Below are positions 1-12,601 of a stretch of 12,601 nt of DNA, piece after piece. The notes beneath the pieces are model-generated. The model did no database searches, was not told the DNA's origin, and saw only the letters and a program-made list of their open reading frames with translations. Positions within the stretch are counted from its first letter, which is position 1. Each line of letters begins with the position of its first letter. Source of the DNA: a virus (lineage: Duplodnaviria > Heunggongvirae > Uroviricota > Caudoviricetes); IMG/VR virus record IMGVR_UViG_2606217105_000016, positions 1 through 12,601 of that record. One strand, 5' to 3'. The translations under genes were made by a program, and so were the position numbers.

Positions 1-1119
1 TCAAATAACCAACTTAACCCATTCCTGACCTCGAGTATCGTTATAGCGATCGGTGGTTGCCTGGACTTTATGTCCTAGTAATGTTTTTGTATCGATACCC
101 TGTGCACGGTACAGCCGTTCTGATAGAGAGCGTTGTTCATGAAATGTTGGCGGAGTTTTTCCTGCTGGTGGAATTATCCCAGCCAGATCCCGTGCTTTGG
201 CAAAGTAGTCGCTCAGGTTGTCTTTACTCATCGGCTTCGGTTGTTTCTGGTGCCGACTATGGATTAGATATGGACTTAATATTCTGTCTCGGCACCCATC
301 AATAACTTCTTTTAACGTTATCCCAATGGCATCACAGCGTAGTGTAAGCGGTAACGCCAGACGCATTCCGGTTTTTCCCTGGGTGATATGCAAGTGTTCG
401 TTCCACACATCTGAAAAACGCATGTGGCAAATGTCATCACGGCGCTGACCAGTAACAATCGCAAGAAGCATTGCGTTACGGATAAAGTGTTTTTCAGGCG
501 TTGCATTGTAAATTTTTTGCCAGTCTTCCATGGTGAGCCTAGCTCTGGTTACTTTAGGGATCGGTTTACGGGTAGCCTCCGGAGGATTCCATCCAGGAGG
601 AACTTCCCCTGCATGCTGTGCTTCTTTATAAATATCAACCCATAATCCACGATTTACTCTCGCTGTGCTGACCATGTCTTTATCCAGCCACTCATCCAGT
701 ATTAATGCAAAGTCTCTTACTTCCAGTTCTTTCAATGGGTGGTTTCCCAGACGGGAAACCAGGTATGCAGCCATTCGAGTTTTTTCTTTGTGAGTTGTAG
801 CTGCAATATCTCCATTTTTCAGTCGCGTGTCCTGTATTTTCAGATATCGATCAACCCATGCCTTTAATCTGATACCCCGACGTTTTGTTGCTGACGGACT
901 TTCATCAATTTTGCGCATGAAATATTCAGCTTCTGCTGCAGCTATTCGCTGATTGGCTGTGGAAGCGATTTTTTCTGCCTTACCTTTGTCTGTTCCGAGT
1001 CCGTGAAATTTTCCAGTCACAGGATTTTTATACTGGTAGTAAACTCTGCCAGTTCTGCGATCAAACTTTTCGTAAAGACCGGCTACGTCAGTGCTGTTTT
1101 TTCGTGGCCTCGGTGACAT
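1..1119 (-). CDS. int: Phage tyrosine integrase (lambda Int family)
   Basis: 372-aa ORF with ATG at 1119..1117 and stop at 3..1. The C-terminus (HEQRSLSERLY...LLGHK...TTDRYNDTRGQEWVKL) closely matches the lambda Int catalytic tail as recalled (HELRSLSARLY...LLGHK...YRDDRGREWDKI), including the His/Arg and Tyr nucleophile region. The start overlaps the upstream excisionase gene as in lambda int/xis. Confidence 0.93.
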   Translation of the reverse strand: MSPRPRKNSTDVAGLYEKFDRRTGRVYYQYKNPVTGKFHGLGTDKGKAEKIASTANQRIAAAEAEYFMRKIDESPSATKRRGIRLKAWVDRYLKIQDTRLKNGDIAATTHKEKTRMAAYLVSRLGNHPLKELEVRDFALILDEWLDKDMVSTARVNRGLWVDIYKEAQHAGEVPPGWNPPEATRKPIPKVTRARLTMEDWQKIYNATPEKHFIRNAMLLAIVTGQRRDDICHMRFSDVWNEHLHITQGKTGMRLALPLTLRCDAIGITLKEVIDGCRDRILSPYLIHSRHQKQPKPMSKDNLSDYFAKARDLAGIIPPAGKTPPTFHEQRSLSERLYRAQGIDTKTLLGHKVQATTDRYNDTRGQEWVKLVI

Positions 1120-1357
1120 GAGTTAAAATCTCCTTCAGTGCATCATCATCGCCAGTATGAATTTCCGGCGCAATTCCCGTTTCACCAGGCCCAACAAATA
1201 CTGCTCGGCGATCTATCAGCCAACGCCCACGAATTTTTTGTGGTCTTGGAACGATGTATCCTAGTTTTCCGTATTTCACCAGGGTAGTGTTTGTTATTGG
1301 GAGACTGAACCGTTTTGGTTTCCACTCGTCGAGCGTTATCAGGTACTGTTCGCTCAT
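1088..1357 (-). CDS. xis: Excisionase-like protein
   Basis: Small (~89 aa) basic ORF immediately upstream of int, overlapping it by 32 bp. ATG at 1357..1355 is preceded by GGAG about 8 nt upstream; the ORF track extends to a GTG at 1366. Position and size fit a lambdoid Xis; sequence identity was not verified. Confidence 0.65.
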   Translation of the reverse strand: MSEQYLITLDEWKPKRFSLPITNTTLVKYGKLGYIVPRPQKIRGRWLIDRRAVFVGPGETGIAPEIHTGDDDALKEILTHVTEATKKQH

Positions 1358-1418
1358 GGCTATCACTCCGGAACGCGCCAGTTGCAGAATATCAACGACA
1401 ACTGGCGACGGTTGAACA

Positions 1419-3890
1419 TTAAAAATCAGCCTGACTCGGGATCAGTTTTTGCCAGATAACTGAAACGTATTTTGCCTGGTAACGGGCGTCATCAAGTGCA
1501 TTATGGCGCTCACCTTCGAATGGAATAGCCGTTCTGGCATCGAAGTCTATGGCTTTCCCCAGCTCAACGATTGTGCGTACATCGCGATCGTTGTAGTAAC
1601 GCCACGGGCAGGGGATCCCCTGCCGTTCGTATGAACGGCGCAAAATCGTGTTGTCGAAGTTGGCTCCATTTCCCCAGACCTGAACAAAAAATTCACCGGA
1701 GTTTTCGTCGATAAATTCCCGCAATTGTAACAGTGCATCATCTAACGGGATTTCATCGGTCATAATGGCAGATTGCGCCTCGCGTGATTGCTTAAGCCAC
1801 CATTTAATGGTGTCACGATCAATGACTCCGCCAGCAGTTTCCAGATCGATAGTCTTACTAAATTCCGGTCCCATATCTCCGGTTTGCGGATCGAAAAATA
1901 TTGCACCTATTGAGATAATCGGGGCATCAGGATTTTTTCCCATGGTTTCAAGGTCGATCATTAGATGGTCACACGTCCTGCTGGTGGATGTGATAACGCG
2001 ATGACCGTTCACCGTAATTAAGGGATCTGCCGTCTCGCCAGTTTCACTATCGCTGGCGTGATCCTGAGCGCTGCCAGCATTCTCCTTGTGTGGGTGTTCA
2101 GCGCCTTCCATTTTCTCCGAATCGTCTTCCTGAACTTCAACCTGGTTCTTGTCATCGAATGTTTCCTGGTATGTTGCGTCGCCCATCACCGCACCACAAT
2201 CAGGGCAGTTGCCACCACCGCTCTGACCGCAGGCGGTGCAGATTTTTTCCGGTTCCTGTTGCACTACTGGTTCAGGTTGTTTCGTTTCTGGCTCGTTTTG
2301 TTGCGTATTTGGGCTGTTTTGTTCCGCTTTCTGGTCGTTCTGTTCCGTTTCTTGCTGGTTCTGGTTCACAGTATCGCGGGTCTGGATCCCCTTAACCCAT
2401 TTCGGATCATTCGGGTCGCTAATCCCTTCAATAAATTCACCACGTGATGCAGCAAGCAACTTATCGGCGTCAGGCTGGCTGATATTGGCTGCCTGCATAA
2501 TTTTGTTTACTTCGTCAGCGGTAACTTTTACCGGTTCTGGCTGTGCGGTCGTGTCAGATGCACCAGTATTTTGTTGTGAACCTGAGTATGTACTGTTTTT
2601 GCGGGCGAAATATTCTTCTTTCGTGATTTCAGTAGCCCCGGCAGCCAGCGCCTTATCCAGACCAGAAAGTTTGTTTGCGCGACCGTATTTTTCGCCATCC
2701 TTGTCGGTGAAGAGGAAGTAGAACGGCCCCTCACGCTCTACAGATGGTTCGACTTCCACTTTGCATTCGGTTTTTTCGTTGTCCGGAATTGCCGTTTCCA
2801 CTGCATCAGTTTCTGGTACTGGCGACGAGAGAGTATCAGTTGCGCTCTGATTTGTTCCTTCATCTTCAAACACGCCCTTTGTAGTCAGGTATTCAGTAAT
2901 GTATTTGTTCAGTGCCACAGGATCTTTGTGAATGTCGATCGGACGTCCACGGACAAGGCCAAAAATAGTCTGGCGGTCGTAGCGAAGGGCATCAGGCTGT
3001 TTGCGCATCGATGCCGAGATACGCTTCCAGTCTTCGCGGTCGTTGTCGATAACTTCATTTTTTGCCCAGCGATGGATGCTGCCGTCAATGTTTCCGGCAT
3101 CCACATCACCAGGCCAGAGAGCGTAGGCCAGTTCGTCATCCAGTGTTTTCCATGTCTGCTTGTATTCGCGACGAATGACTGCAGTGACAGGGGAGATATT
3201 TTCTGCTGAGTTTTCAGTGTGCTGTCGGTTGACTCTGGCGCGGGCGAGATCAACAGCAGACGTGTATTTTCCGGTTTCCTTGCGTTCACCTTCGCGACGT
3301 TTTTTCCAGATGCGCATCTCTGCCTGAATTTCGGGCCATTTAGCTCCAGGCTTACATTTATGCTTAACCCACCCGATGGCATGCAACTTAAGTTCTGGAT
3401 ACATGGCGTTAACTTCTGGCATTTTCATCAACGCTTCAACGATATGTCCGTCGAATGTTGCCATGTCTTCCTGCAACAATTCCTGCGCGCTAATCACCAT
3501 ATCAACGGTGATGTTTTCACATGTGTCGAACTTAACCATGACAGCGTTCTGTACTTCAGGGGCCAGCTTGTCAAAAGTGACGTTCATCGGATCTGATTCA
3601 GTCTCAACCGGGACAAAGGAAGCAGACTCCTCATCCCAGCGGTTTTCCTGCATATATTCAGCATCCCAGGAATCGAGGGCAGGGCGGGGTATACCGGGTT
3701 TATCCTCGCAAACAAGAAATTTATAAGCGCAGTCCTGAGCAGCCGGATAATGCTCCAGGAATTGCCAGTGAAATTTTGCGCGGGCGCGACGTTCATCACC
3801 GGCTTCAATGGCAGTGGCTACAGCGACTGCACCTTCTTCCTTTATTGCCTGTTCGTCCGGAATGGCGGCGCAAATAAAGACTTTACTCAT
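1419..3890 (-). CDS. Exodeoxyribonuclease VIII-like protein with C-terminal DnaQ-like DEDDh 3'-5' exonuclease domain, CxxC-x7-CxxC zinc ribbon and Q/E/N-rich linker
   Basis: 823-aa ORF, ATG at 3890..3888 with GAGG upstream. C-terminal roughly 190 aa carry the exonuclease motifs Exo I (MIDLETMG), Exo II ([13 protein letters not shown]) and Exo III ([10 protein letters not shown]). Zinc ribbon [15 protein letters not shown] is encoded near 2190..2237. A low-complexity Q/E/N/P linker is encoded near 2236..2400. Confidence 0.85.
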
Positions 3891-3982
3891 TTTGTTTTAC
3901 CTCATTACAGATTTAAGGGTGAACAAATCCCTGCCATTGCTGGCATATAAGAATGAAAGCGGATGTTTATTACGGAACTGTT

Positions 3983-4174
3983 TTAAAGACCTGCCGGGAT
4001 TTCGTTATTATCCTGGTGAATAACTTTATCGACCGGGTAACAGTTACCGGGAATTTTCTGTTCGGTTGCTGCAGTCATACATTCCTGCATTGTCCTGTGA
4101 ACACTGACTGCAATATCAACTGGCTCTCCGGAAACAAGATAAACTGTCAGAACAAGCGCAAATGCTGAATTCAT
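3983..4174 (-). CDS. Small hypothetical protein with N-terminal signal-peptide-like hydrophobic segment (~63 aa)
   Basis: ATG at 4174..4172 preceded by AAGGA 8 nt upstream. Begins MNSAFALVLTVYLVSGEPV, which looks like a signal peptide or membrane anchor. Its start overlaps the stop of the upstream ORF in an ATGA arrangement. The ORF track's longer 81-aa version starts further upstream at 4228. Confidence 0.5.
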   Translation of the reverse strand: MNSAFALVLTVYLVSGEPVDIAVSVHRTMQECMTAATEQKIPGNCYPVDKVIHQDNNEIPAGL

Positions 4175-4359
4175 TGTGCACATCCTTTTGGCATCAGACG
4201 TAAACGAGCCAGCATTGAAACAATGCATATTTTATTTAATAGCTCCCGTTCTTGTTTTCTCTTGTTAATGGCATCTTCAGTAAATACTGGGTTACTGATA
4301 GTGACACCAATTTCAAAACAACCTTCAGACGTATTAACGTTTGGTAATAACGTTTCCAT
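4171..4359 (-). CDS. Small hypothetical protein (~62 aa)
   Basis: ATG at 4359..4357 preceded by GAGGA 7 nt upstream. Its TGA stop (4173..4171) overlaps the ATG of the downstream gene, suggesting translational coupling. The ORF track's 97-aa version starts at a GTG at 4464, which is less convincing. Confidence 0.45.
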   Translation of the reverse strand: METLLPNVNTSEGCFEIGVTISNPVFTEDAINKRKQERELLNKICIVSMLARLRLMPKGCAQ

Positions 4360-4917
4360 TATCGCGTCCTCAACAATGAATTTTGTGATGCGGTGCCTGG
4401 TGCCTCCAGGTGACGTTAACCAGTTAACAATTAACGCCGGATACAGAGAACCCACCCATAACACTGTTTTTGGTTTTAACTGTTCCGCGTGCGCTTAGCC
4501 GCATTCACCGCATCACAAAATTCACTTTAAAAAGGGCGGCAGAGCAGTCACGGAGTAAAACTGATACCGCCAAACGCCACCAGAAAATTGATAACAGAGG
4601 GCGTTGCAGCGGGGTTGTCACTTAAGCGTATGGTCAACCTGACAACCCGGTGTCCTCAACGGGGAAGGAATAACCCCGCCATACTTACCGCCGCGCCATT
4701 TCGCGGATTGCCACAACCGGAAGCGCACGGTCGAATTAAATTTAACGACACCGTACAGACAGAATAACTTCGCCGTGCGCTTTCGCGTTATGTCCTGACT
4801 TTTCAGGGATATATCCTTCCAGTAAACTGCCAGTGCCGGATGCTCACCCGTGTCCGGCGCACGCACTCCACCTGACCCGTGGAGAACTCCTTAATTACCA
4901 ACCCTCAGGAGGGTGAA

Positions 4918-5139
4918 ATGACTAGTAAAAATGTAAATATCCAGTTTAACCACGATGTTTCTCCTGCTGGACTTGCGGATGAGCTCACTGCTATAAAAAC
5001 GGCAATTATGCTACTTGCTGCTAAGTTGCCTGCGTCATCAAAGCCAGCGGAAATTTGTGACTCATTGCGTAAGATGAATTCAACAAAATGCAATGAGATG
5101 GCATCACTTATTGAAAGTGCAATTGATTTTAATGATTAA
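4918..5139 (+). CDS. Hypothetical small protein (73 aa)
   Basis: ATG at 4918 preceded by a canonical AGGAGG (4907..4912) with 5-nt spacing. It is the only plus-strand gene in a block of minus-strand genes and overlaps the 3' end of the convergent gene 5129..5503 by 11 bp. Confidence 0.5.
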   Translation: MTSKNVNIQFNHDVSPAGLADELTAIKTAIMLLAAKLPASSKPAEICDSLRKMNSTKCNEMASLIESAIDFND

Positions 5140-5503
5140 TCGAAATTTCATGGCTAACTGTAACACTCCCATCTGTGGCGGGATGGTTTAAATCGCTGGG
5201 ATTAATGCCGCACTCAGTAAAATGGTTCTTAAGGGGTTCTATCCGAATCCCTTTCTTTTTCATTAACAAGCCAAACCCCTTATCAATGATATCCATTAAT
5301 TCCAGGAGGTATTTTTCATGTAAATCCTGGTTATCAGAGAGCTGCTTCTCTTCGTACAGACCGATAAAGGCACGACGCACGTTACCGGATATAGTATCGA
5401 TGGTTTCTTTTTCTACGGTACTCAGGTCAAGAGTCGCCAGTTGGGAACGAACTATATTCGCTGCCATTTCCTGGAATTGCATTGGTAAATCTTTAAATTC
5501 CAT
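5129..5503 (-). CDS. Hypothetical protein (124 aa)
   Basis: ATG at 5503..5501 with GAGG upstream. It is the second gene of the leftward operon downstream of the repressor-flanking operators. No recognisable motifs. Confidence 0.6.
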   Translation of the reverse strand: MEFKDLPMQFQEMAANIVRSQLATLDLSTVEKETIDTISGNVRRAFIGLYEEKQLSDNQDLHEKYLLELMDIIDKGFGLLMKKKGIRIEPLKNHFTECGINPSDLNHPATDGSVTVSHEISINH

Positions 5504-5525
5504 TATTAGCCTCGTTGGTTAGCTA

Positions 5526-5744
5526 TTAACGCGGGCATGTAATCATTCTGGCAATGCTTAATGCCGCTGCTTTTTCCAGCCTGGTGATATCCTGCTCCAG
5601 AGCGGACAGATTTTCAGCCTGCTTAGCCTTGGCTTCATTGGCCCATTTCAGATCCTGCGCTGCATTAATTTTCTGGCGCATCCACTCATAAAGTTCATCA
5701 TCGGTATAGTCTGGCGCGATGATGACGGGTTCTCGTTTCTGCAT
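5526..5744 (-). CDS. Hypothetical protein (72 aa), first gene of the leftward early operon
   Basis: ATG at 5744..5742 preceded by GAGGA 6 nt upstream. Acidic, predicted helical. It lacks an arginine-rich N-terminus, so it is not an obvious lambda N-type antiterminator. Confidence 0.6.
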   Translation of the reverse strand: MQKREPVIIAPDYTDDELYEWMRQKINAAQDLKWANEAKAKQAENLSALEQDITRLEKAAALSIARMITCPR

Positions 5745-5939
5745 ACTGATTCCTCGCGGTGCTGTTTCCCCTTAACGCCGGGGTAGCGGAACAAAAACCT
5801 GCTGCATAGTTATTAAAGTTGAACCCTGCCGTCATGTTCTTACGCCTCGGGCTGGCTACTTAACCCCTGACCACTGCCTGGTAACTCAAAGTATTGCCCT
5901 GCATTCTGTGGGGCGGGGTGGGTTGGTATGAAAAGAAGG

Positions 5940-5978
5940 ATACCCATAGGTATTTAAAAAGTAAATACCCATGGGTAA
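5940..5978. promoter_or_regulatory. OL-like operator pair with a leftward pL-like promoter
   Basis: Two 14-bp palindromic sites 25 bp apart: ATACCCATAGGTAT (5940..5953) and ATACCCATGGGTAA (5965..5978, containing the perfect 12-bp palindrome TACCCATGGGTA). On the minus strand these interleave with a -35-like TTTACT and a -10-like TATCCT, mirroring the OR/pR arrangement. Confidence 0.6.
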
Positions 5979-6019
5979 CCTTTTGCAGTGTCTTAACTGG
6001 TGACTAGTTGTTTGGTGAG

Positions 6020-6439
6020 CTATGATGCGTTTTGTGCTTTCTTTTTACGGATTTCTTCGTAGATCATATTGTAATACTGTTTTTTCTCTTCAAGAGTTTT
6101 TAATAATTTATCCGCTTCACTTTCTGGCAGTTCGTCTAAGAGATCTAAAAAAATACGTTGTCGTGGCGTTAGAACCCTTGTTTCATAACTGGAGGCTGTG
6201 TTCGTTGATGATGAAACGATACCATCCATCCATCCCCGGGGTAACCCAAAGGACTCTTCGATAATCTCCACCATATCATCAGCGATCCGTTTTTTTCCCT
6301 TTTTCCCCTCTGGGTACAACATTCTTGATACATAAGAAGGCTCGCGCCCGATCTTTCTGGCCACGTTAACCGCTTTACCATCGCATTTCTCATCACGAAT
6401 TTTGATGAGTTGCTGTCGTCTAAATTCATATTTGTCCAT
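6020..6439 (-). CDS. CI-like phage repressor (HTH DNA-binding protein)
   Basis: 139-aa ORF with an HTH-like segment (AVNVARKIGREPSYVSRMLYPEGKKGKKRI). It is divergently arranged with a Cro-like gene across an operator-bearing intergenic region. There is no Shine-Dalgarno before the ATG, which sits about 7 nt downstream of a TATTAT -10 on the minus strand, suggesting a leaderless mRNA as for lambda cI from pRM. The repressor is small, with no obvious S24 peptidase domain. Confidence 0.75.
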   Translation of the reverse strand: MDKYEFRRQQLIKIRDEKCDGKAVNVARKIGREPSYVSRMLYPEGKKGKKRIADDMVEIIEESFGLPRGWMDGIVSSSTNTASSYETRVLTPRQRIFLDLLDELPESEADKLLKTLEEKKQYYNMIYEEIRKKKAQNAS

Positions 6440-6445
6440 AGGTAA

Positions 6446-6514
6446 ATAATAGATGCGATTACTGCAAGGTAAACAACCTGTGGGTATTGACTTTTGTTTA
6501 CCTGTGGGTATTCT
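6446..6514. promoter_or_regulatory. OR-like operator pair with divergent pRM-like and pR-like promoters
   Basis: Two 14-bp sites 24 bp apart: CAACCTGTGGGTAT (6474..6487) and TTACCTGTGGGTAT (6498..6511), sharing the half-site GGTAT with the OL sites. pR-like -35 TTGACT (6487..6492) and -10 TATTCT (6509..6514) overlap the operators. pRM-like -10 (minus-strand TATTAT, plus coordinates 6446..6451) sits just upstream of the repressor ATG. Confidence 0.6.
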
Positions 6515-6539
6515 TTGCTGTGTTTACTAAGGAGTAGCT

Positions 6540-6821
6540 ATGGAAGAATTAAGAATATTTCTCAATTCTCTTTCGTCAGATGAACAGCGTATGTTTGCAT
6601 GCGAGTGTGGTACCAGCATCGGTTATCTAAGAAAGGCATTGAGTAAAGGTCAAGTGTTAGGGGCATCGTTATGTGTCCTTATTGAGCGAGCCAGTAATGG
6701 TGAAGTTACACGTCAGCAACTAAGGCCTTTGGATTGGATGAATATTTGGCCCGAGCTGGAAGATACCAAAACGTTAACACAACCACTTTCTAGGAGCTTG
6801 ATTCATGAAAATCAAGCATGA
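6540..6821 (+). CDS. Cro-like (YdaS-type) small HTH regulator
   Basis: 93-aa ORF, ATG at 6540 preceded by AAGGAG with 5-nt spacing. The segment CGTSIGYLRKALSKGQ resembles a Cro/YdaS-type HTH. Divergent from the repressor. Confidence 0.75.
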   Translation: MEELRIFLNSLSSDEQRMFACECGTSIGYLRKALSKGQVLGASLCVLIERASNGEVTRQQLRPLDWMNIWPELEDTKTLTQPLSRSLIHENQA

Positions 6822-7230
6822 ACACATCCGCATGGCGATGAATGCCTGGGCGCGTCCTGATGGCGAAAAAGTTCCAGCAGCTGGAATAACCCAGGCTTAT
6901 TTTGAGTTGGGTATGACGTTTCCTGAACTGTATGACGACAGCCATCCGGAAGCCTTGGCTCGCAATACCCAGAAAATTTTCCGCTGGGTAGAGAAAGACA
7001 CCCCTGATGCAGTTGAAAAAATTCAGGCGTTGTTACCAGCGATCGAAAAGGCAATGCCACCTTTGCTGGTGGCCAGAATGCGCAGCCACAGTTCAGCTTA
7101 TTTTCGGGAGCTGGTGGAGACGCGGGAGCGACTGGTGAGAGACGCTGATGATTTTGTCGCAGTGGCAATCGCCGGTTTCAATCAGATGAACCGTGGTGGC
7201 CCGGCAGGAAATGCTGTGGCAGTACATTGA
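6805..7230 (+). CDS. CII-like / YdaT-like prophage protein
   Basis: 141-aa ORF overlapping the Cro-like gene by 17 bp; ATG at 6805 with AGGAG upstream. Size, position immediately after the cro-like gene and the N-terminus MKIKHEHI match my recollection of Rac prophage YdaT. This is from memory, not verified. Confidence 0.65.
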   Translation: MKIKHEHIRMAMNAWARPDGEKVPAAGITQAYFELGMTFPELYDDSHPEALARNTQKIFRWVEKDTPDAVEKIQALLPAIEKAMPPLLVARMRSHSSAYFRELVETRERLVRDADDFVAVAIAGFNQMNRGGPAGNAVAVH

Positions 7231-7301
7231 CTGACAATAGCCATATCGAATCGCTTCCGGCAACTCGTGAGTAAAAAGATTCGGTATCAGAAGAGGTGAG
7301 T

Positions 7302-8372
7302 ATGGCTAACGCCTGGCTCAGATTATGGCATGACATGCCAAATGACCCTAAGTGGCGAACAATTGCCAGGGTGTCAGGGCAGTCAATTGCAACAGTGATG
7401 GCAGTGTATATCCACCTCCTGGTGAGCGCGTCACGAAATGTCACGCGAGGTCACATTGATGTCACGACAGAAGATTTGGCAAGTGCGCTCGACGTGACAG
7501 AAGAGGTAATTGATTCAATTTTGCAGACGATGCAGGGGCGGGTACTTGATGGTGATTTAATCACTGGATGGGAAAAACGCCAGGTGCTGAAAGAGGACAA
7601 CGGCAATATTTCGCAAACCGCAAAATCTCCGGCAGAGCGCAAGAGGGCGCAGCGAGAGAGGGAAAGAAAGCGGGAACAAAATGGAGATTGTCACGGCGCG
7701 TCACGAAATGTCACGCACATGTCACGACGAGTCACGACAGATAAAGATACAGATAAAGATACAGATCAAGAAGATCAAAACACTATGGTCCATGGCGTAA
7801 AAAACGCCACGAACCAGGCAGGGGATGTTCAGACCGTCAATCCTGGTCAGCCAGCAGGCACGACACCGGAAGCCGATTCAGCGTATGCGCTGAAAGCCGA
7901 TTCGGGCGCTGTGCAGCAGGTGATGACCGCAAGGCCGGAGCAATCACACCAACTGCAGCAGCCTGAAGCCGATTCCGCCATTCAGCGGGAAGCCGATCGG
8001 GTAGTCCCGGAAAACACCGGGCAGCCTGTGAGACGAGTGGATTATCCGGATGTGTTCGAACAGGTCTGGCGGGAATACCCGTTGCGTGCTGGGGCAAACC
8101 CGAAGAAATCCGCTTTCAGTGCCTGGAAGGCCAGATTACGCGAGGGGGTGCCACCAGAGGCCATGCTGGATGGCGTGAGGCGTTACGCAAGATACTTGGC
8201 GGCTACCGGGAAAACGGGAACGGAATTTGTTCAGCGAGCGACGACGTTTTTTGGACCGGACCGGAATTTTGAGAACCCCTGGTTGCTCCCGGTAAGCGGC
8301 ACGAACAACCAGCGTTGTGTGAATCATATTTCTGAACCGGATAACGAAATTCCGCCGGGCTTCAGGGGGTAA
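7302..8372 (+). CDS. Replication initiator-like protein (YdaU/DUF1376-like) with internal iterons
   Basis: Probable ATG at 7302 with AAGAGG 5 nt upstream; the ORF track begins at a GTG at 7296. It sits where lambdoid phages carry the O-type initiator, and contains two iteron clusters in-frame, analogous to ori-lambda inside gene O. It also contains a DKDTDKDTD tandem repeat. Confidence 0.7.
   Translation: MANAWLRLWHDMPNDPKWRTIARVSGQSIATVMAVYIHLLVSASRNVTRGHIDVTTEDLASALDVTEEVIDSILQTMQGRVLDGDLITGWEKRQVLKEDNGNISQTAKSPAERKRAQRERERKREQNGDCHGASRNVTHMSRRVTTDKDTDKDTDQEDQNTMVHGVKNATNQAGDVQTVNPGQPAGTTPEADSAYALKADSGAVQQVMTARPEQSHQLQQPEADSAIQREADRVVPENTGQPVRRVDYPDVFEQVWREYPLRAGANPKKSAFSAWKARLREGVPPEAMLDGVRRYARYLAATGKTGTEFVQRATTFFGPDRNFENPWLLPVSGTNNQRCVNHISEPDNEIPPGFRG
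7426..7470. repeat. Iteron cluster 1 (candidate replication origin element)
   Basis: 45-bp block gcgcgtcacgaaatgtcacgcgaggtcacattgatgtcacgacag with TCACG-type motifs at about 10-bp phasing (7431, 7441, 7451, 7462). Its first 21 bp are identical to the start of cluster 2. Confidence 0.65.
7696..7740. repeat. Iteron cluster 2 (candidate replication origin element)
   Basis: 45-bp block gcgcgtcacgaaatgtcacgcacatgtcacgacgagtcacgacag, exactly 270 bp downstream of cluster 1. TCACG motifs at 7691, 7701, 7711, 7722 and 7732 are phased at roughly one helical turn. Confidence 0.65.
7740..7775. repeat. Short tandem repeat (12-bp unit gataaagataca, two copies plus degenerate copies)
   Basis: gataaagataca at 7740..7751 and 7752..7763, followed by gatcaagaagat. 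Encodes DKDTDKDTDQED inside the replication gene. Confidence 0.7.
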
Positions 8373-8412
8373 GTGTTGATTTCTGGTCATGAGGTAATTT
8401 TCAGGAGGACTT

Positions 8413-8823
8413 GTGGCAAAAGTTTTTACACAAGAAGAGCGAGAAAAAATTAAAGGGCGGGTTGTTGAACTCGTACGCCAGAGTGGGCGTGAGACGTTAC
8501 GGCAACTGGAAGTCAAGACAGGTGCGACAAGATATCTGATGAGCGTTCTCGCAAGAGAGCTGGTTGCCAGCGGCGATGTATACAACTCTGGTTACGGGTT
8601 ATTCCCGTCTGAACAGGCGCGTAAGGACTGGCAAAATGCCCGTAAAAAGCTCTCAAGGGCAAAGCCGAAGAAACCATCTGCGGTTGATCCGGACCTTATC
8701 TGGTCATTACCTGACGGAGAAATACGTCGCTACGACAGGCGTCAGAACATAATCTGTCGCGAGTGCCGGAAGAGCGAAGTTATGCAGCGCGTGCTGGCGT
8801 TCTATCGGCGACGTTTTAGGTAG
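8413..8823 (+). CDS. Hypothetical basic protein (136 aa), possible winged-helix DNA-binding protein
   Basis: GTG start at 8413 preceded by AGGAGG (8403..8408) with 4-nt spacing. Arg/Lys-rich C-terminus with a CxxC-like RECRK segment. Function unknown. Confidence 0.55.
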   Translation: MAKVFTQEEREKIKGRVVELVRQSGRETLRQLEVKTGATRYLMSVLARELVASGDVYNSGYGLFPSEQARKDWQNARKKLSRAKPKKPSAVDPDLIWSLPDGEIRRYDRRQNIICRECRKSEVMQRVLAFYRRRFR

Positions 8824-9399
8824 CGTTACATTGAGCAAACGGTGCAGAATTGAAATAATAGCAATTCGGAAGTATGCCGCTACGATGATGGTTGAAAGCA
8901 TAGGTAAGTTGACTGGGAAGGTTGTTACTGCAGTGAGCTCAGTCCGTGTATATAACCCATCATTGCCTGAAGGTGAGCAACAATCAGGTGCAACCGAAGT
9001 TAACGGCAAGAAGCTATGGCTGATAATGGTTCTGCAAATGCCAAACCGTTAGTGATTTCCGGAGAAACAATGTGGAAGGATATGGCAAAGGTAAAAAGTG
9101 TCTGTGAAAGATGCAAAATATCTAAACCATACATACAACCTCCTATCATGTAATAGTGTCGATGCCATTTCAATACACGGTAGCTCAGGAGAGGGACGAA
9201 AACAGCGGATACCCATTTATCAGTACTGGTTTCTCAATCCTCAGGTTTACCCAAAACTCAACACTAATCCAGCTGGTTATGTGAACCAGGTAAATTCTTT
9301 TGGTGTGAACCTCTTGAAGATGAAAGTTTTTTTGCTATGTTAGTCAAACATAAACTTCCCCTTTTTGAGCAAAAAATACTCTTTTAGAAGGATATTTAA

Positions 9400-11511
9400 A
9401 TGGCGCGTCAATATGAAATGCAGATATCAAGGATGACAGTAGATAAATTAGGTGTGAAATTATATGACAGGGCTTATGCTGTTATAGCCGAATTAGTATC
9501 TAACAGTTACGATGCAGATGCGACTAATGTCACTATAAAAGCACCTATGGGCCAATACTTGGCTGTTAGACAGGATGGTGTTGTCAGGTCAAAAAATGTC
9601 ACAATAGAAGTAGAAGATAATGGCGTCGGAATGGCGCCTGATGAACTACAGAACTTTTATTTGGTTGTTGGCAAAGAAAGACGTAAGGATCCAAAAAGAG
9701 GTGAAACCTCGAAGGTGTTTCACCGCAAAGTCATGGGACGGAAAGGCGTTGGGAAATTAGCACCTTTTGGTGTTTGTAAAAGGGTCGAGATTATAAGTGC
9801 CGGTGGGGAAAAAATCAGTCGTGATGGAAAGGAAGGGTATGAGGTTGCTCATATTCAGCTAGATAAAGAAAAAATAATGGATGATACTGCAGTGTCTTAT
9901 AAACCGGAAACTGGGGATTTAGACGGCACACTAAGTGACAGGACCTATACTAAAATAATATTAAGTGATTTTGAATATAGAAAAATTAGCGAAATAAAAG
10001 ATTTATCTCGGCAGCTTTCACAACGTTTTGGAGTGAAGAGTAAAAACTGGAATATTAAACTGATTGATACTTCGAAAACAAAGTCTAATCCTGACTATGA
10101 AGTTGAGGTCGGAGAGTTTACTGTTCCTGTTATGCCTAACTCTAAAATTGAATTTCGTTCCATGAGTGGAAGTATTGCGACAGATTCTTGTACGGATTTA
10201 AGTGATTATACGGCTTTTAATCCTGACGGCACGCGTTCATCAATTGTTAAGGCCGGTTTTGAACATGAAGGGAAAGCTTACCCGATATTAGGTTGGATTG
10301 CATACGCGAAAGAGCCTTATAAGGACGAGTTAATGGCAGGTGTTAGAATTTATTGCCGAGGTAAGTTTGCTGCGCAAACAGCAGTTTTTAATAGAAAAGC
10401 TGGTTTTACTGGAGAGCACTCTATACGTTCATATTTGGTAGGTGAGTTGCATGCTGACTGGTTAGACGAAAAAGAAGATCTTATCCAAACTGATAGAAGG
10501 GATATTCTATGGTCTGATGATTTAGGAACGCAATTTCAGAATTGGGGGCAAGAAGTTATTTTACTTGTGGGTAAAATAACTCGCGACCCCCTTAGAAATA
10601 ATATGATGAATCAATTCTTCGAATTAGCGCAAGTGGAGGATAAGGTCGAGCAAGCATACCCTGGAGCCGGTCAAAAGGATATGCGAGCACAGGCTAAAAA
10701 AATAGCCAAGTTGTTGGGTAAATCTTTACGAGGTGATGAATTACATGATCCTGATGCACTCGAGAATTTAGTGCAGTTAAGTATTATGTTAGCACCATTA
10801 CAATCCTTAGATGAGAAGTTAATAGAAGCTTCCAGTAAAGCGGATACACCGCTCAATGTTCTCAACGATATTTTAGCAACGGCTCAACTAGCTGAAACCG
10901 TTAGTTTTGGTCAAAAGGTCAAAAAGCGTCTTCAGATTATTGAGCGTCTCGAGTCTTTAAAAGACGCAAAGGATACAGCAGAAGATGAGTTACAAGATCT
11001 AATTGCATCCGCTCCGTGGCTAGTTAACCCTCAATGGGTCCCAGTTACAGCAAATAAAACGTTGTCCACGCTTAAAAGGGAATTTCAAAAATTTTATAAA
11101 AAGAAAACTGGTGAGGAGATATTTCTTATAGATTTTGATAAAAAAAATAAAAGACCAGACTTTGTATTGTTTAGTCAGGATGGAAAATTACAAATAATTG
11201 AAATAAAAAAGCCACATCATTATATTTCCAATGATGAAATGGATCGTATTATTAATTACTTCGAAACATTCGAGGAGTTTTTGAACGATGAGAGACATAA
11301 TGATTTTAAATCAATAGCATCTGATTTTCACGTTACGCTGGTAAGTGATGGGGAGCGCTTGAGTGGGGCACGTCGTAAAGCTTATACTGCATACATCGAA
11401 GAAAAACGCCTAACACCCGTTGATTGGGCAGGGTTCTTGCTGAGGACAACTCAAACTCACCAAGAATTCTTGGATGAGGCAGAACAGTTGAAGTTGGGAA
11501 ATAATGAGTGA
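9400..11511 (+). CDS. GHKL-family ATPase (MORC-like) fused to a C-terminal PD-(D/E)xK nuclease domain; predicted ATP-dependent restriction endonuclease
   Basis: 703-aa ORF, ATG at 9400 preceded by AAGGA. N-terminal Bergerat-fold motifs: ELVSNSYDADA (E-x3-N-x2-D-A), DNGVGM (DxGxG) and GRKGVGK. C-terminal nuclease motif RPDFVLFSQDGKLQIIEIKK (PD...EIK). The stop overlaps the start of the methyltransferase gene by 8 bp. Confidence 0.8.
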   Translation: MARQYEMQISRMTVDKLGVKLYDRAYAVIAELVSNSYDADATNVTIKAPMGQYLAVRQDGVVRSKNVTIEVEDNGVGMAPDELQNFYLVVGKERRKDPKRGETSKVFHRKVMGRKGVGKLAPFGVCKRVEIISAGGEKISRDGKEGYEVAHIQLDKEKIMDDTAVSYKPETGDLDGTLSDRTYTKIILSDFEYRKISEIKDLSRQLSQRFGVKSKNWNIKLIDTSKTKSNPDYEVEVGEFTVPVMPNSKIEFRSMSGSIATDSCTDLSDYTAFNPDGTRSSIVKAGFEHEGKAYPILGWIAYAKEPYKDELMAGVRIYCRGKFAAQTAVFNRKAGFTGEHSIRSYLVGELHADWLDEKEDLIQTDRRDILWSDDLGTQFQNWGQEVILLVGKITRDPLRNNMMNQFFELAQVEDKVEQAYPGAGQKDMRAQAKKIAKLLGKSLRGDELHDPDALENLVQLSIMLAPLQSLDEKLIEASSKADTPLNVLNDILATAQLAETVSFGQKVKKRLQIIERLESLKDAKDTAEDELQDLIASAPWLVNPQWVPVTANKTLSTLKREFQKFYKKKTGEEIFLIDFDKKNKRPDFVLFSQDGKLQIIEIKKPHHYISNDEMDRIINYFETFEEFLNDERHNDFKSIASDFHVTLVSDGERLSGARRKAYTAYIEEKRLTPVDWAGFLLRTTQTHQEFLDEAEQLKLGNNE

Positions 11512-12601
11512 GAAAACAGTGACCAGTTTGAATGCAGTTGACCTATTTAGCGGTGGTGGGGGACTAACCATGGGACTAAAAATGGCCGGGTTTGATGTCA
11601 AAGCTGCCGTTGAACTGGACGCACATGCCGCCGCTACTTTCCAAGCAAATCATCGTGAGACAAAACTCTTTGTTCAAGATATTCGGTTTGTAAAGGGGAG
11701 TGATATCCTAAATCTTATCCCTGAGCAACATTTAGATCTTTTATCTGCGTGCCCGCCATGTCAAGGATTTACTAGTCTCACTGCCAAGTATAAAAGGGAG
11801 GACCCTCGTAATTTATTGATTAACGAGATGTTACGGTTGGTTGAAGAAACCAATCCATCAGCAATCATGATGGAAAATGTTCCTGGATTAGCTTCCCGGG
11901 GAAATCATCTTCTTTCGCCAGTAATTGAGAGATTGAAAAAACTTGGTTACATAGTTAATTATGGAGTTTTGCAAGTAGCTGACTTTGGTGTACCACAGTT
12001 CAGAAAAAGGCTTGTTCTGTTGGCAGGAAAAGGATTTGCCATCCCATTGCCTGATGGATCACACTCTAAGGATGGAAGAGAGAAACCCAAATGGGTAACT
12101 GTTAAAGAAGCTATTGGAGATATGCCAAAACCCTTAACTCTTTCACAGGCTAAGAAGCAAGGGAAGTTTCCATTGTCGAGTTGGCATATTGTTAGGGATT
12201 TGTCTGAGATCAATATAAAGCGGTTACAAGCGGCTGTTCCAGGGATGTCTTGGGAGTGTATTCCCGAAGAACTCCGTCCAGATTGCCATAAAGGCGACTA
12301 TAAAGGATTTAGTAATGTTTATGGTCGTATGCTTTGGGATGACGTATCGCCTACGATTACAGGTGGGTGCACAACTTTAAGCCGTGGGCGATATGGACAT
12401 CCTGAGGATACGCGTACTATTTCTGTTCGAGAAGCTGCTAGACTACAGACTTTTCCTGATAACTATGTGTTTGATACAGCTTTGATGGATAAAGTATGCG
12501 TCATAATAGGAAATGCACTTCCATGCAAGTTTGCAGAGTATTTGGCTAACCACTGTAAAAATTATATTAATAAAGCAAGAACAGCTGGATTAATACCATA
12601 A
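11504..12601 (+). CDS. DNA (cytosine-5)-methyltransferase
   Basis: 365-aa ORF with the canonical m5C methyltransferase motifs: I (LFSGGGGLTMGL), IV (PPCQGFT, catalytic Cys), VI (ENVPGL), VIII (QFRKRLVLL), IX (REAARLQTFPDNYVF) and X (GNALPCKFAEYLANH). A variable target-recognition region lies between VIII and IX. ATG at 11504 overlaps the upstream gene. Confidence 0.93.
   Translation: MSEKTVTSLNAVDLFSGGGGLTMGLKMAGFDVKAAVELDAHAAATFQANHRETKLFVQDIRFVKGSDILNLIPEQHLDLLSACPPCQGFTSLTAKYKREDPRNLLINEMLRLVEETNPSAIMMENVPGLASRGNHLLSPVIERLKKLGYIVNYGVLQVADFGVPQFRKRLVLLAGKGFAIPLPDGSHSKDGREKPKWVTVKEAIGDMPKPLTLSQAKKQGKFPLSSWHIVRDLSEINIKRLQAAVPGMSWECIPEELRPDCHKGDYKGFSNVYGRMLWDDVSPTITGGCTTLSRGRYGHPEDTRTISVREAARLQTFPDNYVFDTALMDKVCVIIGNALPCKFAEYLANHCKNYINKARTAGLIP

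Follow-up and report, generated by a model that had tools for sequence, protein, structure and literature searches.

A probable AT-rich restriction-modification cassette in a variable cargo slot of Rac/Qin-like lambdoid prophages of Escherichia coli

The stretch of DNA analysed here (the window) is the 12,601 nucleotides of the IMG/VR virus record IMGVR_UViG_2606217105_000016, and covers the early genes of a Rac/Qin-like lambdoid prophage. Behind its replication genes lies an AT-rich segment (the island) holding two genes, here called R and M, that look like a restriction-modification (R-M) pair. M overlaps the end of R, stop codon included, by 8 nt, and the window ends at the stop codon of M; 576 bp separate R from the DUF977 gene upstream. 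This end of the window reads:

8413-8823, + strand: DUF977 gene, for a Ren-like exclusion protein (Pfam PF06163, E = 1e-29; phrog_142)
8807-9276: filler of ~470 bp, travelling with the island within E. coli and outside the inter-genus cassette described below
9277-9399, + strand: 5′ leader with a promoter-like block
9400-11511, + strand: R gene, for a 703-aa 'ATP-binding protein' with a predicted GHKL ATPase, transducer domain, helical linker and C-terminal PD-(D/E)xK (DUF4263-like) nuclease
11504-12601, + strand: M gene, for a predicted 365-aa C5-cytosine methyltransferase

An earlier, sequence-only reading had proposed an abrupt shift to AT-rich composition in this part of the window, and sliding GC, third-position GC (GC3) and codon usage all bear it out, both GC and codon usage differing strongly between the cargo and the rest of the window. 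GC is 0.477 in 1-8823 against 0.399 in 8824-12601 (chi2 = 65, p = 7e-16); in 500-bp sliding windows it runs at 0.50-0.57 over 6750-9000 and then at 0.35-0.43 from 9000 to the window end, and no 3,778-bp window within 1-8823 falls below 0.450. By parts, GC is 0.37 in the non-coding 9100-9399, 0.388 in the R gene and 0.419 in the M gene, and GC3 is 0.31-0.32 in R and M against 0.51-0.55 in the upstream ydaT, initiator and DUF977 genes. The synonymous codons of cargo and backbone differ with a chi2 of 180 (41 degrees of freedom, p = 2e-19), where backbone-against-backbone controls give 54-89: CTG makes up 5% of the Leu codons in the cargo against 31% in the backbone, ATA 39% against 16% of the Ile codons, and AGA plus AGG 44% against 23% of the Arg codons. 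Two details of that reading need correction. The composition up to 8823 is only roughly balanced, as GC also dips locally to 0.40-0.42 in the cI-like/cro region and over 4000-5500; and the AT-rich stretch does not start at about 9100, the drop in GC setting in at about 8807-8813 instead (the change point falls at 8813 when computed on 6500-12601, and at 9022 on the whole window).

Comparison with related prophages shows this segment to be a variable island, as had been supposed. Of 5,426 complete E. coli genomes searched by megablast with 8400-12601, only 21 hold the query in full, at 99.0-99.5% identity, whereas 4,053 match the DUF977 flank alone (the first ~407-423 bases of the query), i.e., ~75% of the genomes carry the flank; this contradicts the possibility that the same R-M genes occupy this position in most DUF977-bearing prophages. 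In four genomes, e.g., that of strain IrN (locus L003; L numbers denote the loci compared), 1-8806 aligns in one piece at 99.8% and total divergence follows, the near-isogenic L003 holding other genes at this place. The alignment with L003 puts the left junction at 8806|8807, 17 nt upstream of the DUF977 stop codon. The right junction lies 17 bp past the methylase stop, and hence past the window end, where the carriers L001 and L004 rejoin the L003 homology. Homology between carriers of the island and L003 resumes exactly at AAAACCCGCTTCGGCGGGTTTTGTTTTTT, an intrinsic terminator with a 9-bp stem, a UUCG loop and a T-run (free energy dG = -14.2 kcal/mol, z = -3.0), downstream of which follow a phrog_1212 ORF, DUF968, RusA and Q. 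The variable segment measures 3,811 bp with a GC of 0.399; its alternative in L003 measures 3,066 bp with a GC of 0.400, and holds DUF4406, DUF4752, two unknown reverse-strand genes and hokD.

The slot bounded by the Ren-like DUF977 gene and by the conserved terminator preceding the phrog_1212-DUF968-RusA-Q block is not peculiar to this prophage. Among 80 IMG/VR prophage contigs encoding a DUF977 protein, homology on the left ends at 8804-8806 (query 392-394) in 80/80 loci, so that the last ~6 codons of DUF977 belong to the variable segment; the last ~6 residues of the protein vary with the adjoining cargo (136 aa here, 140 aa in L003). The right anchor could be located in 53 of these contigs, and the 53 intervals, 1.8-6.0 kb long, contain 28 cargo types. 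None of the 53 loci shows an empty site, the shortest interval being 1.8 kb. Cargo GC lies below that of both flanks in 45/45 adequately flanked loci (mean 0.415 against 0.50 and 0.51), and AT-richness is therefore a trait of the slot's cargo in general, not of the R-M cassette specifically. The cargo of the slot includes:

IetA/IetS (IetAS)
Rosmer (RmrT/RmrA), in three variants
Lit (Peptidase_U49)
a Beta-protein/cll pair (gop-beta-cll / PD-Lambda-2-like)
PDC-S33 (RelA/SpoT-like)
a PD-T4-6-like Ser/Thr kinase
RES and HEPN/RES-NTD proteins, and a SMEK-domain protein
QueH, and a ParA-like ATPase
three insertion sequence (IS) transposases
several pairs without annotation

Conserved flanks thus enclose variable content enriched in known defence systems, as is found in defence hotspots. 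Several of the slot's cargos are weakly assigned or unassigned by Pfam and PADLOC:

L003 18762-20242, - strand: a pair of 310 and 184 aa
L045 8914-9720, - strand: a 269-aa protein
L039 10698-11792, - strand: a 365-aa protein
L038 7099-8164, - strand
L024 11186-12592, - strand: a DUF6731 pair
L085 9005-11131, + strand: a HEPN_RES_NTD1 pair

Because known defence systems share their position, all six are candidate defence systems and, if our reading of the slot is true, the unannotated cargos of L003, L045, L039, L024 and L085 would be candidate new ones. The slot's flank is present in about three quarters of the complete E. coli genomes; already home to Iet, Rosmer, Lit and kinase-type systems and to several unannotated gene pairs, the slot is well suited to the search for new defence genes.

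A hokD module is found in 46/53 intervals and not in the R-M island, which has displaced it. Where present (e.g., L003 20649-20804), hokD is a semi-conserved landmark of the slot, usually ~70 bp upstream of the terminator; it is absent from the R-M island, from Iet and from two further cargo types. In some loci extra cargo, e.g., Rosmer, sits between hok and the terminator, and the slot therefore has two sub-sites.

Prophage defence hotspots are established for P2 and P4 and have been noted for other prophages (PMC9122126, PMC9519451), and a limited search of the literature found no description of the DUF977-terminator slot. Like the P2/P4 hotspots (Rousset et al. 2022, PMC9122126; Vassallo et al. 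2022, PMC9519451) and the 'morons' of lambdoid phages, it combines conserved phage flanks with variable, defence-rich content of atypical composition, and a terminator closes it downstream. It differs from the P2/P4 hotspots in belonging to a different phage family, and in lying between a Ren-like DUF977 gene and a hok/terminator-DUF968-RusA-Q block. In the sense of Hendrix and Juhala, a moron brings its own promoter and terminator; here the composition is atypical and a putative promoter-like block is conserved, but the terminator belongs to the backbone, flanking genes directly adjacent to each other are not seen among the related loci and, unlike the classical moron, the slot has no empty-site allele.

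The R protein begins with a GHKL-type ATPase domain (HATPase_c_3, PF13589, E = 7e-19), and its residues 507-624 weakly match HSDR_N_2 and SduA/DUF4263. Among the PADLOC models it matches REase_II (E = 7e-34), with SduA as a lesser match (E = 1.7e-5, 22 bits), and residues 5-697 match positions 1-648 of the 659 of the NCBIfam model NF050001, BbrUII/HgiDII (E = 3e-70). The GHKL motifs (E31/N35/D38, D73xGxG, G113xKGVGK) are invariant across 35 homologues that share 52-91% identity, and so is the nuclease motif E561..D587..E601xK603, the catalytic site of the nuclease being apparently intact. PF14082 is not matched by R at E <= 0.01 and is nevertheless precomputed, in part as 'faint', for several of its homologues. 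In its AlphaFold (AF2) model, of predicted local distance difference test (pLDDT) 73.7, a GHKL and beta-rich middle module leads by way of a long helical linker into an alpha/beta domain at the C-terminus, with beta-strands at 589-602 and then a helix. Foldseek aligns 430-530 columns of the model to the N-terminal and middle domains of Hsp90/TRAP1, to the ATPase module of SMCHD1 and to MORC2 (E ~1e-11 to 6e-10, but with template-modelling (TM) scores of 0.27-0.35); these GHKL/middle-domain matches dominate the whole-chain search, which gives no independent confirmation of the C-terminal nuclease fold. Relatives of R number at least 1,637 in the protein database, the close ones including Serratia (91%), Citrobacter koseri (87%) and Pantoea ananatis (78%), and the E. 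coli protein, in identical form, has records on 774 contigs; this wider distribution comes from the protein database, a pattern scan of species-representative genomes with the single R protein having returned two loci only. Several R proteins of 544-598 aa are recorded, and in one genome the E. coli methylase is split into 90-aa and 262-aa parts (MHC8987508/9); some short or split copies of R and M may be genuine truncations rather than contig-end artefacts, hinting at decay in some lineages.

The M protein, for its part, reads as an intact C5-cytosine methyltransferase. It matches PF00145 over its full length (E = 6e-58), TIGR00675 dcm at 154 bits, above the 100.65 cutoff, and MTase_II of PADLOC (E = 9e-91), and its translation holds the motifs FSGGGG (I), PPCQGF (IV), ENVPG (VI), QFRKR (VIII) and GNALP (X). 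Against solved structures only the generic core of Dnmt1, HaeIII and HhaI is matched, the target recognition domain matching no characterised methylase, and no specificity is assigned. Matches of M to DruM and DrmMII raised the possibility of Druantia or DISARM, which we reject as no other genes of those systems are present.

A C5-methylase directly follows R in 12/12 contexts sampled (R identity 49-100%), namely in E. coli, Citrobacter prophages, a Pantoea integrative and conjugative element (ICE), Serratia, L016, two Planctomycetota metagenome-assembled genomes (MAGs) and four defence-island-like chromosomal loci, and in most of them the identities of R and M co-vary. Distant relatives seem to sit in chromosomal defence islands, judging by their neighbours: Type I or other R-M genes adjoin the R-M pair in L098 and L101, and in a Rhizomicrobium MAG (L099 7771-9753, + strand) a second HATPase_c_3 protein, of 660 aa, follows it. 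The profiles, the motifs and this constant adjacency support R and M as a Type II-like R-M operon, in keeping with the sequence-only reading, which had called the two genes restriction-modification-like.

Between genera, DNA homology is limited to 9277/9304 through 12561/12601, and the portable unit therefore consists of R, M and a leader of ~100-120 bp, with 9277-12601 as the functional core (a 3.3-kb cassette). In every enterobacterial context its GC is 0.38-0.41 against 0.49-0.55 in the flanks. Outside E. coli these contexts are:

lambdoid prophages of Citrobacter, where it likewise lies between the replication genes and RusA/Q
a Pantoea ICE
Serratia, beside an integrase

The preceding 8807-9276 is confined to the same 21 carrier genomes (blastn in distant mode, E. 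coli) and has no homology to the Citrobacter, Serratia, Pantoea or L016 contexts. It is not annotated by PGAP, and since the five small ORFs on both strands of 8807-9399 match neither Pfam nor PHROG, we treat it as probable non-coding filler. The leader holds a candidate promoter, with a -35 TTGAAG (9314-9319), a 16-nt spacer and an extended -10 TGcTATGTT (9333-9341), and a Shine-Dalgarno AAGGA follows at 9388-9392. This promoter-like block is conserved in the E. coli window, Citrobacter, Serratia and L016 while the adjoining bases diverge, and is replaced in the Pantoea ICE; we infer that it is the cassette's own promoter. An internal promoter for M within R (a 10/12 match at 11198-11226) was also considered, but it overlaps the segment coding for the invariant ExK, where conservation is uninformative.

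Within E. coli, the island is found at 99.0-99.8% identity in at least five backbones, which include different integrases, repressors and replication modules:

FORC_082: the same integrase, integrated at potC
CE0007a: at the tRNA-Ser/mtfA site, with a LexA-like repressor
a group of 12 genomes typified by elppa4
a group with DUF1627
one genome with racR

Two IMG/VR carriers, L013 and L017, are homologous to the window at the DNA level only from 8404, the start of DUF977, onwards, and the left-flank recombination endpoints of the island differ between backbones. Conserved flanks, identical breakpoints, the lack of repeats and the multiplicity of backbones indicate that the island spreads by homologous exchange between prophages. 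As there is no empty site, and the hokD of 46/53 loci is displaced here, each exchange would replace an earlier cargo. The sequence-only reading is supported in that a foreign module occupies a variable lambdoid slot behind the replication genes, and is refined in that this module took the place of earlier cargo instead of being inserted.

An alternative would be the arrival of a discrete mobile element, by transposition or site-specific integration at an empty site. The abrupt boundaries of the segment, the IS transposases among other cargos of the slot and a 6-bp TTCTAT near both junctions could be taken that way. The island, however, holds only two genes, and domain searches of both find no transposase, integrase or other recombinase; the flanking direct repeats for which the sequence-only reading had suggested a search are found at neither junction, there being no direct or inverted repeat of 12 nt or more, whilst chance alone would give a shared 6-mer in windows of 80 bp. 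By these features the island is no transposon or integrative element. The left breakpoint is the same across all 28 cargo types and the related loci have no empty site, and the shifting left-flank endpoints across backbones fit such an element no better, so that we hold this origin to be very improbable. Still less credible is a reading of the AT-rich stretch as the usual unevenness in composition of a mosaic phage genome, with neither a foreign origin nor a special function. It is true that the cI/cro region and 4000-5500 dip to comparable GC values, but the chi2 of the cargo's codon usage is twice that of any backbone control, and the view is already refuted by the presence/absence polymorphism (21 against 4,053 genomes), by the alignment at the junctions and by the cassette being AT-rich in four other genera, and in other element types too.

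A different question is whether R and M work together at all. R could be a stand-alone immune nuclease of Shedu type I-D, similar to VcSduA and sensing infection by itself, and M, unconnected with it, an orphan or phage-protective methyltransferase such as lambdoid phages often carry. The weak matches of R's C-terminal domain to the SduA/DUF4263 models and the PF14082 precomputed for several homologues lean that way, as do the activity of VcSduA, of the same architecture, on its own (PMC12137116) and the stand-alone paraMORC3 genes noted by Iyer et al. (PMC2292703). VcSduA is a single-gene system, though, while R is followed by M, in overlapping or abutting ORFs, in each of the 12 contexts from Enterobacteria to Planctomycetota; their identities mostly co-vary, R matches a restriction-enzyme model over its full length, and the two move jointly as one 3.3-kb cassette. 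We therefore regard independent roles as unlikely, if clearly less so than the two origins dismissed above.

This leaves, as the interpretation that we hold with considerable confidence, that 8807-12601 and the following 17 bp form a foreign AT-rich R-M segment at a hotspot where Rac/Qin-like lambdoid prophages exchange cargo and defence genes by recombination, working in the following way. In the lysogen a promoter of the cassette itself would drive transcription, whatever the repression of pR, as far as the backbone terminator. M would methylate one sequence motif in host and prophage DNA, and R would depend on ATP to dimerise or clamp on DNA by means of its GHKL/transducer module, and would cut DNA lacking that methylation, i.e., that of superinfecting phages and incoming plasmids. 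The lysogen would thus be protected, and the cassette could also act as an addiction module in place of the displaced hok module. The cassette would have been captured from a low-GC source, and homologous recombination within the conserved flanks of the slot would now carry it from one E. coli prophage to another. In its broad outline (i.e., foreign R-M cargo at a variable slot) this is what the sequence-only reading had proposed, with refinements as to replacement, AT-richness, repeats and the helicase loader discussed below.

Several observations weigh against this interpretation. Blastn in distant mode matched the island's DNA to none of 50,697 phage and 72,556 plasmid records, and so points to no donor. 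The interpretation explains neither the origin of the filler at 8807-9276 nor, with R preceding M and no controller protein, how self-restriction would be avoided on entry. The promoter block matches 8/12 consensus positions and is missed at the scan threshold of 9/12, and promoter-like sites are no commoner in the island than in shuffled sequence. VcSduA, the closest experimentally studied architecture, works without a methylase. Finally, R scores 237.4 bits where the NF050001 equivalog cutoff is 550 bits, and is thus a homologue but not an equivalog of BbrUII/HgiDII. R.HgiDII and R.BbrUII recognise GTCGAC, a specificity that is not transferable to R because 237 bits is far below that cutoff.

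The likeness to known systems is nonetheless considerable. R.HgiDII is the classical GHKL-bearing Type II restriction endonuclease (PMC2441816), and with it and R.BbrUII R shares full-length homology, an N-terminal GHKL domain followed by a C-terminal nuclease, and an adjacent DNA methyltransferase gene; M.BbrUII, however, is described as an N6-adenine methylase (PMC5829577), against the C5-cytosine methylase here. The paraMORC3 family, defined computationally by Iyer, Abhiman and Aravind (2008), joins GHKL, S5 and a restriction endonuclease (RE)-fold nuclease, and is associated with methylases (PMC2292703). As far as its description goes, R resembles it in its ATP-binding motifs (D73xG75xG77 and G113-K119 are invariant), in a C-terminal RE-fold E-D-ExK nuclease, in the association with a cytosine methylase and in a patchy, laterally mobile distribution; the transducer region in the model of R would be the counterpart of the S5-like middle domain. 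paraMORC3 genes are partly stand-alone, in contrast to the constant methylase linkage in the 12 contexts sampled here. Shedu type I-D includes GHKL-DUF4263 fusions (bioRxiv 10.1101/2023.08.10.552793), of which VcSduA needs both its ATPase and its nuclease residues for direct, non-abortive anti-phage activity (PMC12137116). By its published description, VcSduA has the same order of GHKL ATPase, Hsp90/MORC-like middle domain and DUF4263-type PD-(D/E)xK nuclease, its E27 and K557 (the motif I Glu and the ExK Lys) corresponding to E31 and K603 of R. Like the cassette it is carried on mobile elements, and unlike R, which adjoins a C5-methylase, it is a single-gene system. Given the architecture and catalytic residues shared with HgiDII, paraMORC3 and VcSduA, together with the linkage to a methylase, the most likely activity would be methylation-sensitive restriction gated by a MORC/Hsp90-like ATP clamp.

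It is tempting to go further and to speculate that the clade of R is a distinct ATP-driven restriction class bridging the HgiDII-like 'Type II' enzymes and Shedu type I-D, in which the methylase could give self/non-self discrimination whilst the MORC-like clamp licenses cleavage, and that the DUF977-hok-terminator slot is an undescribed and very common E. coli defence hotspot; we offer this combined proposal tentatively, as doubtful on present grounds. More soberly, the cassette is an uncharacterised GHKL-type R-M system, and both such systems and prophage defence hotspots are already known kinds, so that this is a fairly ordinary case of phage immunity-gene swapping that does not overturn current understanding. 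With both junctions defined, it is at the same time a precise record of the exchange of an immunity cassette between E. coli prophages, and a methylase-linked relative of VcSduA and HgiDII could be a convenient model for the role of MORC/Hsp90-like ATPases in a restriction enzyme.

As for the rest of the window, the genes upstream of DUF977 are:

1-1119, - strand: integrase, with an excisionase
exonuclease of 823 aa
dicB/DicF/ydfC module, with DicF at 4534-4585, - strand
6020-6439, - strand: repressor of 139 aa
6540-6821: Cro/YdaS-like
6805-7230: YdaT
7296-8372, + strand: replication initiator of 358 aa

The DicF antisense small RNA (4534-4585, - strand; Rfam RF00039, 76.4 bits, full length) stands beside the dicB/ydfC-type module, and its presence makes the prophage one of the Qin/Rac type. 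The sequence-only reading had remarked that a DnaC-like helicase loader would be expected behind the initiator. The window does indeed have no AAA+ or Walker-A ORF, and K-12 Rac has ydaU-ydaV(ATPase)-ydaW. The remark has no bearing on the island, however, since the non-carrier L003 has an identical initiator-DUF977 arrangement, and in the carrier L017 the same island is preceded by an HTH_36 initiator, an IstB/DnaC-like ATPase, DUF1627 and DUF977; the presence of a loader tracks the variant of the replication module and is unrelated to the cargo. Residues 124-358 of the initiator, moreover, match a 'DnaD-like helicase loader' PHROG (E = 3e-62), and with these arrangements this leads us to reject a displacement of the loader by the island. 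The last ~20 residues of the initiator resemble the C-termini of DnaT and YdaU. A tblastn search of the DUF977 protein against K-12 Rac gave no match at E < 1e-3, and we do not equate it with YdaW. The initiator gene also contains two direct repeats of ~46 bp (7426-7471 and 7696-7741, 85% identical, 270 bp apart), which encode ASRNVT...VTT and could be iteron or origin sequences within the gene, as in lambda O.

A second position beyond the slot also appears to be variable: behind Q, non-carriers have a Ser/Thr kinase and PP2C phosphatase pair (L003 23501-25005, L002 15103-16607), and carriers of the island have a cluster of tRNA genes (Ile, Lys, Thr, Gly).

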